The position numbers are program-made. A DNA stretch of 7,816 nucleotides from a virus (lineage: Duplodnaviria; Heunggongvirae; Uroviricota; Caudoviricetes), in IMG/VR virus record IMGVR_UViG_2671180770_000017, positions 1 to 7,816 of that record; one strand, 5' to 3'. This document shows positions 3,001 to 6,000 of the stretch, piece after piece. Position 1 is the stretch's first letter, and every line of letters begins with the position of its first letter.

Positions 3001-6000
3001 GTTGCTTAAATCTGCTGCGGAAAGTGGTATTCGCTTACCTATATCCAAAACGTAATCCGCATAGGCATTTTCAGCACGATTAGGAGCAATGGGAGCAGAG
3101 TATCCTGCCGGGGCGGAAAAGTTGAAGTTGGACTGTAATGAGGGAATTTTCATGTTTATATCTAATACCCTGCAAATCATTTATTACAACAAAATAAACT
3201 ATATCAAATTCATTTACCATGAACTGCATGTATACTGACTTGTGTTCATGATTATATTAGGGTGGTTAAACTCAATAAAGTCACAAAAATGATTATAATT
3301 ATGTAATGGTGTAAAATTAAAATATTTCTTAACTCCTTTCCCCAAACCATCATAATATGGATGAGCATCTACTTTACTATGCATAAAAGAAAGTCCCTCA
3401 AGTAGAGCAGGATGATTACTACGGTTAACAATTATTGCACTATTTTCAATATTTACACTATCATTACGACGATCCACATGCATTGAAATTCCATCAGGAG
3501 CATATATTGTACCAAGCTTACCTGTAAGTATCATATCCATATCAAGATAGATACACCCCTCCCCGAATGAAATACCGTGATTCTTTGTATTATATGTGCA
3601 CCTGAATATCTCTCCTGCTTTTAATAAGGCTAAATTTCTGAAGAAATCAAACCATGCATGATTTCTTTTCTTTGCATACATAGAAATCAAAGAATCCTGC
3701 GCCTTTGAAATTTCCCTCAGCTCTTTCTCTAACAGATTCAACAAGTATTCATCTCTTTTGTCTTCAGTTCGTAACCTTTGTTCACATATAATATCATGAT
3801 AAATATCTGATAGTTTTCTGTCATACATACTGAAGTCAACATCTTCCCGATAGATTATCATTACATTTTCAAAATCTCGTTCCAATTTTGAAAAAGCAGT
3901 CTTTTGGTTGACTGAAAAATCGCCATCAACAAAAATACCTATCATACGATCACTCTCTATCCTTGCCGCATTTGTGACATTATCTAAATAGGGATGCTGC
4001 TTAGTATTAACTATTGGAACCTCATCTTTCTTATATCGTTCAGGATTAGGTTCAAACCACTGAAAAAGAATAGGCGTTTTTTCATCAATGACCTTTAACT
4101 CATATTCCTTTCCTGCAAAAGAAACCGTTTGACAGGGTGAACTCTGCACTATATTTACTGAGTTATGGAAAGTTGTCCTTATCGGTGAAAGCATTCGTCG
4201 TCCTGTTTATCCATATTTTCTTCACAACTAACTCTTTAATCTATTAATTATATTGGCATACTCAACCACAAAACCTCCAGCAGTTTTGCCATCTTTGCTT
4301 TCCTAACAAACATCACCATGGCATGCCAACAAAAACCGGAGCCGGACTCCGGTTTTGTGAAGCTGTCGGGTTACTTCATCCCGCCAATATTTTCCCACGT
4401 CCCGTCAGCACGCAGAATTTGCAGCGGTCTTACCACGCACTGTATCTGCTTTTTATCTGCATCCAGTATCACCACCTGCGTGATTACCCTGTCCTGCTCC
4501 GGAATAATGCCATTCTCATCTGACTCCAGAATGTCTGCCGGTCCCAGACGCAGTTGTGCTGTAAGCAACTGCACGTGTTCACGGCCATCATGCTTTCCGC
4601 AACCACACAGACGCTGCATAAGTTTTTTTAGTATATTCATGTCATTCTCCTGTTCTGCCTGTATCACAGCCCACTTCATCCAGCCCCTTGACATCCTGCC
4701 ACGGCCCGTCACCAAACCTGACCTGCAAATGCTGAAACAGCCCCTGAACCTGTGTGGCATCTTTGGGGTCAAGAAAGGTCAGTCCGGTGATGAGTGCGCC
4801 ATCTGTATCCGGGAACCCGCCATTGCTGTTTGTCTCAATAATGCTCGCCGGCCCCAGACGAAAACGGATTTGTGTCTCCCCCGGGTCGCCCTTTGGTCCC
4901 TGAGGTCCGGTTGCCCCCACCGGGCCAGCCGCACCTGTTTCTCCTTTCGGTCCCTGTGGGCCTGCCGGGCCTGCCGCACCGGTATCTCCCTTTGGACCCT
5001 GTGGACCTGCATTTCCCGTCAGACCGGTCTCTCCCCGCTCTCCCCTGTCACCTTTCGGCCCCTGCGGGCCTGCCGGACCAGCATCACCTGCCGGTCCCCG
5101 TTCGCCGGTTGCCCCGACAGGGCCCGTGTCACCGCGCTCTCCCTTATCACCCTTCGGCCCCTGAGGACCCGCGGGCCCCTGTTCCCCCTTTGGCCCGGGA
5201 GGTCCCACCACGGTGGGGATTCGGTTTACGGCCTCTTCCGCCGCTATCCTGCTTTGTTCCGCTGACTGTGCGCTTTCTGCTGACTCCCGGGCTTTTTCTG
5301 TTGCGGTCGTTGCATCCCTGGCTGCATTACCGGCTGCACTTTCTGCCGTCTTTCTTGACAATTCAGCATCTGCTGCACTTTGTGATGACTCACTGGCTTT
5401 TTGAGCGGCCGCAGAGGCCGAGGACGAGGACGCCTCCTCTGACTGCTTTGCAGCGGCTGCACTTTCTGCCGCCTGCCGGGCTGACTCCGATGCATCCCCT
5501 GCTGAAGTGTCAGCATTTGCAGCGCTCTCTTCTGCCTGACTGGCTGATATGCCGGCATTCCTCGCTGATGTCTCCGCCTCTCCGGCATTCTTCTTCGCCT
5601 CCTCTGCGTGACGCGCCGCTTCTTCCACCATCAGTTCAAAACGACGCATTGCCTCCGGCCGGACGTCATCCTCCGACATGGCACCGAGAAAATCATTCAG
5701 CGTCCCCGGTTGAGAATCTTCATACACAGTGATGGTCCCGGCATGTGATGGAGGGAATCCCTCCACCAACAGAGTGACGCTGTACTGACCATACTCGACG
5801 TCCATGCTGTAACGCCCTGCCTCATCCGGATTTTCAGAGGCCACCGTGTTCACCACCACCGTGGTGCTGTTACGTCTGGCTTTCAGTTGAATGGTGCAGT
5901 TCTGTATTGGTTTTCCTGTGCCGTCTTTCAGCACACCTGAAATCTTTACTGCCATATTCACCCTACAAAAAAGCCCGCCTGAACCGGCGGGCTGTCATAA

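Follow-up and report, generated by a model that had tools for sequence, protein, structure and literature searches.

The DNA examined here is a stretch of 7,816 nucleotides (the window), positions 1 to 7,816 of the IMG/VR virus record IMGVR_UViG_2671180770_000017 (Caudoviricetes), and belongs to a decayed lambdoid prophage of attaching/effacing Escherichia coli. Its minus strand carries the gene of a collagen-like side tail fibre, followed directly by a small open reading frame (ORF) whose product resembles the C-terminal tip of that fibre (Table 1). This small gene and its relation to the fibre are the subject of the present analysis. The fibre gene can be read from a GTG or, as annotated by the Prokaryotic Genome Annotation Pipeline (PGAP), from an ATG at 5955, which gives 437 amino acids (aa). 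The product belongs to PHROG 366 ('tail fiber protein') and matches the Pfam families phage_tail_N (PfN; residues 3-135, E=3e-69), Collagen and Phage_fiber_C (PfC; residues 365-428). The same architecture is found in EPclA of Ghosh et al. 2012, whose PfC was shown by experiment to be a trimerisation domain with little alpha-helix that re-nucleates the melted collagen helix; the downstream gene goes unmentioned in that paper (PMC3368898).

The small protein is matched over its whole length (1-89/89, E=1e-59) by PHROG 576, a family made up of just this 89-aa protein, and PGAP names it 'phage tail fiber C-terminal domain-containing protein'. The gene is the orthologue of ORF68 of phage Sp5, of L0122 of 933W, of H0138 and of 'gp59' of phi24B, and its DNA finds a 100% match in E. 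coli strain 2013C-4991. The N-terminal extension is predicted to begin with an amphipathic helix (residues 3-11, MNILKKLMQRL), after which comes a variable linker. The feature is thus already catalogued in Pfam, PHROGs and PGAP. Mondal et al. 2016 described the 89-aa Sp5 ORF68 as a 'fiber C-terminus' protein that is non-essential, and proposed that it could be a reservoir for tail-fibre variation (PMC5155283). An earlier reading of the window (the original prediction) had taken the gene, first of all, for a possible remnant of an alternative receptor-binding tip; both the observation and this leading interpretation have been in print since that paper.

Table 1. Features of the fibre locus and its surroundings (positions in the window)
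Feature	Position (nt)	Strand	Details and basis
EPclA-type collagen-like side tail fibre gene	4642..5961	-	439 aa from GTG at 5961
Domain order of the fibre	4642..5961	-	PfN, Ala/Glu-rich coiled coil, collagen (Gly-X-Y)n shaft, PfC knob (Pfam)
PfC knob of the fibre, segment paralogous to the small ORF	4678..4869	-	Residues 365-428; PF06820 1-64/64, E=3e-34
Shine-Dalgarno sequence AGGAG of the small ORF	4647..4651	-	Within the final fibre codons, 6 nt before ATG
Small free-standing PfC gene	4371..4640	-	89 aa; translation, PF06820, PHROG 576, PGAP name
N-terminal extension of the small protein	4560..4640	-	Residues 1-27, no fibre counterpart; secondary structure from AlphaFold2 (AF2)
PfC domain of the small protein	4374..4559	-	Residues 28-89; Pfam PF06820
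Intrinsic terminator	4328..4356	-	11-bp stem, 3-nt loop, U-run; RNA fold -20.4 kcal/mol, z=-3.0
Truncated tfa remnant, beyond part of the effector cargo	2736..2867	-	Caudo_TAP PF02413 positions 92-124/131, E=5.5e-12

The relationship between the small protein and the fibre was assessed by pairwise alignment and by profile comparison. In BLASTP, residues 29-88 aligned with fibre residues 366-427 at 24/62 identities (39%) and 63% positives (E=1e-12). The Smith-Waterman score of the pair was 111, whereas 2000 shuffled sequences gave 27.3 +/- 4.1 with a maximum of 47 (z ~20), so that the alignment is significant. Membership of PF06820 was decided by the gathering score of 25 bits. Both proteins lie above it, the small protein with 123.3 bits (residues 28-89, E=5e-36) and the fibre with 117.6 bits, each over the entire model (1-64/64). 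The codon-aligned DNA of the small gene and the fibre PfC is 55% identical, and the longest identical run is 8 nt. The original prediction had put the protein resemblance at about 35-40% and had called the DNA clearly diverged, and both estimates held. By these comparisons, the small gene is an old, diverged duplicate of the C-terminal trimerising knob of the fibre. Like the PfC of EPclA, its product would be expected by homology to form a beta-rich trimerising knob; unlike it, the small protein is free-standing, has no collagen shaft, carries the 27-residue N-terminal extension and Cys68, and is only 39% identical to the fibre domain.

In a profile search of 1.84 billion representative sequences, we found 84 proteins, nearly all of them Escherichia fragments. 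The family is tiny. A profile search of the Protein Data Bank sequences gave chance matches only. Long proteins from the deep search with multiple 'PfC-like' stretches (P0140, P0165) were discarded, as they are CarboxypepD_reg or SprB repeat proteins with spurious low-complexity beta-repeat matches. Likewise, many 'divergent' homologues at 70-88% identity turned out to be frameshifted or chimeric gene calls with no true divergence.

The fibre gene ends with a TGA (4644..4642), and a single C (4641) separates it from the ATG of the small ORF at 4640. The predicted ribosome-binding site and the start 1 nt past the fibre stop were therefore found as described (AGGAG, read 4651..4647), and the TGA-C-ATG junction with its embedded AGGAG also bears out the proposed translational coupling to the fibre gene. 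The junction ...AGGAGAATGACATG is identical in 74/80 related IMG/VR loci as well as in Sp5 and 2B8. Of the six non-identical junctions, four deviate by one base or by a deletion of 1 nt; the remaining two are preceded by unrelated sequence, which in L033 is an IS66 insertion. The hairpin 3' of the small ORF was not flagged by a consensus terminator scan and was revealed by direct folding. Because this terminator hairpin follows it, the small ORF is the final gene of the late operon; a scan of the window found no promoter of its own for it.

Of 5,426 complete E. coli genomes, 698 carry the small ORF; it occurs there 6,398 times in all, nearly always at full length, and the median carrier has 10 copies. 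It is also carried by 296 phage records, which include the viable phages 2B8, BP-4795 and the 933W group, and it was found in all Stx-converting and effector-carrying lambdoid phages sampled. All 296 records hold both a small-type and a fibre-type PfC, each at an identity of at least 80%. As small-type and fibre-type PfC share only 39% identity, each of these records must contain both. No fibre with a small-type tip was seen among them (0/296; 293/296 cover the N-terminus), so in this survey of related phages the two C-terminal variants were always separate. The small gene could equally have proved absent or out of frame in close relatives; this was not seen, given the 74/80 identical junctions, and all 55 full-length copies recovered (55/55) were intact. 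The pair is kept in E. coli, E. albertii, C. rodentium and Salmonella, on differing shafts. The copy in C. rodentium lies within a decayed remnant and adds no independent information. A scan of a genome collection returned E. albertii only, plus a 725-bp contig labelled 'Xanthomonas pisi' (L083, NZ_JPLE01000138.1), which encodes a small protein of 92% identity and is probably E. coli contamination.

In a divergent lineage of Salmonella enterica (P0126, P0177), a PfC-tipped fibre is followed by a free 79-aa PfC gene, a terminator (an equivalent hairpin with a T-run 3' of the small gene) and then effectors. The two shafts there are unrelated: the fibre of locus L089 has a PfN+Pf2 shaft without collagen, and that of L088 (212 aa) has neither PfN nor collagen. 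Together with EPclA in the window and EPclB in Sp5, the pair is thus found on four shaft types, and the small gene and the PfC tip are inherited as a two-gene module irrespective of the shaft. Between E. coli and Salmonella, the small proteins are 53% identical and the tips 40%, whereas paralogues share 30-39%. Because orthologues are closer than paralogues, the duplication predates the split of E. coli and Salmonella, with both copies kept since.

The free copies also share features that set them apart from the fibres. The E. coli and Salmonella orthologues both start with M-x-I-[LF]-K-K, predicted to be helical, which the fibres lack, and their Cys68 stands in place of a Gly of the fibres. 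The two junctions are built differently, with a 1-nt gap in E. coli and an overlap of 14-23 nt in Salmonella, but the Shine-Dalgarno sequence and the ATG are kept in both. This retention, and that of the start motif, despite the differing geometry points to independent initiation of the small ORF. We considered a metal site or a lipobox in the N-terminal CGCGKH and discarded both, as the Salmonella orthologues do not keep the cysteines; in P0177 and P0178 the N-terminal Cys is replaced (SGG).

Selection on the small gene was estimated from polymorphism and from independent pairs of genes. The ratio of non-synonymous to synonymous polymorphism (pN/pS) was 0.165 overall, 0.086 for the PfC part and 0.47 for the N-terminal 27 residues, compared with 0.25 for the fibre PfC; the set was picked by protein identity, which biases pN downwards, although the independent pairs mitigate this. 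For these pairs, the ratio of non-synonymous to synonymous substitution rates (dN/dS, omega) was 0.18 for the window versus Sp5, 0.03 for the window versus 2B8 and 0.13 for Sp5 versus 2B8. Between E. coli and Salmonella it was 0.26-0.30, so that dN/dS spans 0.03-0.30 overall. These values indicate that purifying selection maintains the small gene.

The comparison with Sp5 (VT2-Sakai) is instructive in this respect. Its ORF68 has the same length of 89 aa and likewise stands behind a collagen-like PfC-tipped fibre; 82/89 residues are identical, and the junction TGAcATG is the same. The fibre differs: Sp5, a short-tailed Stx2 phage, has EPclB, and the lambda-like defective prophage of the window has EPclA. 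The PfC part of the small protein (residues 28-89) is nevertheless 100% identical in amino acids in the window, the podovirus Sp5 and the siphovirus 2B8, at a synonymous divergence (dS) of 0.14-0.23, whereas 3-7 of 80 residues vary between their fibre tips. The Salmonella loci L088 and L089 behave in the same way, with 74/79 identities in the small protein and 58/83 in the tip. The small protein is therefore more conserved than the fibre tip.

These data bear on whether the gene has any function at all. A non-functional leftover of a tandem duplication would agree with the dispensability of the gene in Sp5 (PMC5155283) and with the state of the window prophage, itself wrecked by deletion of its head and tail genes. 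A mere leftover is nonetheless hardly credible, given dN/dS well below 1, the 55/55 intact copies, the full length of nearly all copies at 6398 places in 698 genomes, and the retention of the pair over E. coli, E. albertii, C. rodentium and Salmonella on varied shafts. Moreover, truly decayed copies look different, as in locus L002 (4954-5100).

The same results argue against a silent reservoir, that is, an alternative tip stored beside the fibre gene and swapped onto it by recombination, with a change of host range. In favour of this proposal of Mondal et al. 2016 (PMC5155283), a crossover at any aligned codon would stay in frame, and rare recombinants (P0063, P0121) exist. A second version of the distal fibre is also encoded beside the fibre gene in the G segment of Mu (S/S') and the C segment of P1. 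Unlike those systems and e14 P, the window has its copy in direct orientation, as a complete and independently translated gene, with neither inverted repeats nor a Gin/Cin/Pin invertase, and it does not have a 3' exon that lacks a promoter. There is only one cassette, inverted repeats between 3900 and 6100 were limited to short chance ones of 12-19 nt, and no recombinase ORF was found in the window; the flanking repeats or recombinase sites that a host-range cassette might have had are thus missing from this region. A DNA identity of 55% with runs of at most 8 nt is insufficient for homologous exchange. The small ORF also has its own conserved Shine-Dalgarno sequence and ATG, and a conserved N-terminal extension that occurs on no fibre. 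Finally, purifying selection acts at the protein level, the small PfC is less variable than the tip that it is supposed to diversify, and none of the 296 phage records has a small-type fibre tip. We therefore regard a reservoir as improbable, and the idea of a remnant of an alternative tip or host-range cassette is contradicted by the intact copies, their low dN/dS (0.03-0.30) and their conservation. As for the recombinants, P0063 (4 member sequences) has a collagen shaft fused to a small-type PfC at a G-P-A microhomology, and P0121 joins the N-terminal half of the small protein to a fibre-type C-terminal half; these rare natural chimeras may exist as alleles, or may have arisen in assembly from repeated prophages.

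We also considered that the small protein might be appended to the fibre by a +1 frameshift near the fibre end, so that some fibres would carry a second knob. The small ORF is indeed in the +1 frame relative to the fibre, with no stop in the 44 codons before its ATG, and Salmonella has the two genes in the same relative frame. There is, however, no slippery sequence, and the last sense codon GAA (GAA-TGA-C) cannot re-pair in the +1 frame; Mondal et al. likewise found no frameshift signal (PMC5155283). In Salmonella, the different geometry of the junction has left the Shine-Dalgarno sequence, the ATG and the start motif in place. Codons 4-6 of the small ORF include a run of seven A (4623-4629, minus strand, CTA AAA AAA) that fits X_XXY_YYZ in frame. 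Sp5 has ATT TTG AGA instead, and the run is probably meaningless.

Data from purified virions are available for phi24B, in the proteome supplement to a cryo-EM preprint (doi 10.64898/2026.04.10.717836). One row of its database is labelled 'Spike or just gp59?', which agrees with a fusion, and hypothetical gp61-gp59 fusions ('Fusion_6159_FS1/FS2') were among the sequences searched; the main text of the preprint is silent on gp59 peptides and fusions. In the part of the supplement covered here, the peptides ADGTWENIGGMK and VITQVVILDADKK, specific for the small protein, had 3 spectra each, compared with 2,267 spectra for the gp61 fibre. Scaled by length, an equimolar small protein would give ~300 spectra, a figure that is indicative only, as the detectability of peptides varies. 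As far as these numbers indicate, the small protein would be at most a trace or transient passenger of the virion and not a structural subunit. The same part of the supplement contained no junction-spanning peptide. In a low-molecular-weight gel slice (EA1829), 'Fusion_6159_FS1' had 25 spectra and gp61 24, and the fusion row had fewer than gp61 in almost all other slices covered. Counts this low are not reliable, but they hint that the source of the gp59 peptides is the free small protein rather than a fusion of ~80 kDa. Taken with the junction, a fusion product is very unlikely.

Another role for a free knob could be that of a soluble decoy or receptor mask, which would occupy the fibre receptor at lysis or in the lysogen and so spare the progeny from debris or exclude superinfecting relatives, as Llp of T5 and Cor of phi80 do, whose genes adjoin receptor-binding genes. 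The small gene is directly 3' of a receptor-binding fibre gene and encodes a free distal knob. In carriers, with their median of 10 copies and numerous related prophages, exclusion or anti-aggregation could pay, and non-essentiality in laboratory assays with a single phage would be compatible with such a role. However, a signal peptide or usable lipobox of the Cor/Llp type was not seen: the N-terminus MNILKKLMQRLCGCG is charged and, judged by inspection, has no hydrophobic core. Lacking its own promoter, and transcribed together with and coupled to a late gene, the small gene would not be expressed in a lysogen. At 39% identity to the tip, and with the variation of the tip not tracked, there is no reason to expect the same receptor, and the small protein matched no PADLOC defence family. 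A decoy thus seems unlikely.

The position of the small gene can be compared with that of lambda tfa. As with lambda Tfa, the gene stands directly 3' of the side-tail-fibre gene, is co-inherited with the tip and is accessory. Lambda Tfa (Caudo_TAP) is unrelated to it in sequence, and while the small protein is homologous to its presumed client, Tfa proteins are not. The claim that the product is not a classical Tfa was confirmed: it has no Caudo_TAP match, PF06820 is its sole Pfam match at E<=1, and a genuine tfa fragment, labelled 'tail fiber assembly protein, incomplete' by PGAP, lies elsewhere in the window (Table 1). Remnants of tfa were found 1.3-3 kb past the small ORF in the window, in 2B8 and in ~15 fetched IMG/VR loci; one example lies at L092 5807-6046. 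This suggests that a module of the PfC tip and the free PfC replaced the distal stf and the 5' part of tfa. Their location past the cargo looks like the outcome of an insertion of the cargo between an older tfa and the PfC module.

Our preferred interpretation, held tentatively and with a little less than even confidence, is that the small protein serves as an accessory trans-acting trimeric partner of the fibre PfC tip. The product would be a small soluble trimer of a short N-terminal amphipathic helix and a beta-rich PfC knob. It would act in trans on or with the PfC tip of the fibre during or just after assembly. Occupying the slot of lambda tfa, it might for example stabilise or template the tip or prevent its mis-association. 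It would mostly be left behind after assembly and would not be a stoichiometric subunit of the virion. Such a protein would raise fitness and yet be dispensable for infectivity on laboratory K-12. We favour this interpretation because the position in the tfa slot and the tfa remnants downstream suggest that the PfC module replaced tfa, and it is supported by the selection on the gene, the pairing in 296/296 records, the transfer of the module and the autonomous trimerisation of PfC. Of the three options in the original prediction, the one with most support, though unproven, is the trans-acting assembly factor of tip origin; that account was right about a diverged, coupled paralogue that is not Tfa, and its remnant or host-range cassette did not stand.

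Several observations weigh against a trans-acting partner, besides the sampling bias in pN/pS. The AF2 monomer model is beta-rich and of low confidence, with a predicted local distance difference test (pLDDT) of only 52-56, so that fold, oligomeric state and tip interface are to be read as predictions. We saw no co-variation of the small protein with variable tip residues; as it does not track tip variation, it must contact conserved surfaces if it binds the tip. In Sp5, nine genes, the fibre gene ORF67 among them, proved necessary for plaques and lysogeny on K-12 when deleted; ORF68 is not one of the nine and is classed with the non-essential late genes (PMC5155283). Recombinant EPclA, expressed in E. 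coli without the small gene, gives correct trimers, and isolated Col-PfC refolds unaided within minutes (PMC3368898). A strictly obligatory chaperone role is excluded, because ORF68 is non-essential in Sp5 and EPclA trimerises alone. In addition, the trace peptides in phi24B virions could be contamination.

It is also possible, with a lower probability than for a trans-acting partner in general, that this partner is derived from its own client: a duplicated tip knob would have replaced Tfa, and would template or stabilise folding of the tip in trans or cap a subset of fibres distally. C-terminal drivers of trimerisation are also found in the chaperone domains of Peptidase_S74 type (K1F endosialidase, T5 pb1). 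PfC differs from these in that it shows no sequence match to them and is retained instead of being cleaved (PMC3368898), and the window adds a copy in trans. If the proposal of a client-derived partner is true, the pair would be a two-component tip module that moves between unrelated shafts, in siphoviruses and podoviruses alike. A partner derived from the tip would add a mechanism to the few known ways of phage fibre assembly or capping, and would bear on the prediction and engineering of the host range of Stx phages. The gene is very abundant in an important niche.

Downstream of the small ORF, the window contains, in this order, nleB2, an nleC fragment, the tfa fragment, an NleH-like gene and nleF. 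These effectors (nleB2, nleC', nleH', nleF; window 1036-4194) directly follow the terminator, and in other loci NleG and SopA are found (L084-L090). The small ORF marks the boundary between the late operon and an exchangeable locus of type III secretion system effectors in E. coli, C. rodentium and Salmonella. Of the nleC gene (window 2890-3180, minus strand) only the first 96 codons are present, and the NleH-like ORF (1792-2496, minus strand) is shortened; nleH is annotated as frameshifted in a near-identical genome. No tRNA was found in the window.

On the other side of the fibre gene, two fragments of the terminase large subunit (7129..7722 and 6475..7053, minus strand) are frameshifted and truncated within the nuclease domain. 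They abut a lom gene without its first 52 codons (Ail_Lom positions 53-199; the whole segment spans window 6020-7722, minus strand). Because the terminase fragments abut the truncated lom, the head and tail genes from portal to gene J must have been deleted. The fibre gene and the small ORF are intact despite the defective prophage.

A decayed copy of the small ORF was observed in locus L002 (4954-5100). It covers residues 37-85 at 75-78% identity, has no start codon and lies 687 bp downstream of the intact copy. The same decayed stretch occurs in L005, L009, L012, L021, L040, L047 and L048, between a 180-aa ORF and an NleG-like gene. A third PfC cassette in these 8 loci was ruled out, as the stretch is a decayed fragment among effector genes. 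It is probably a recombination scar between prophage ends.

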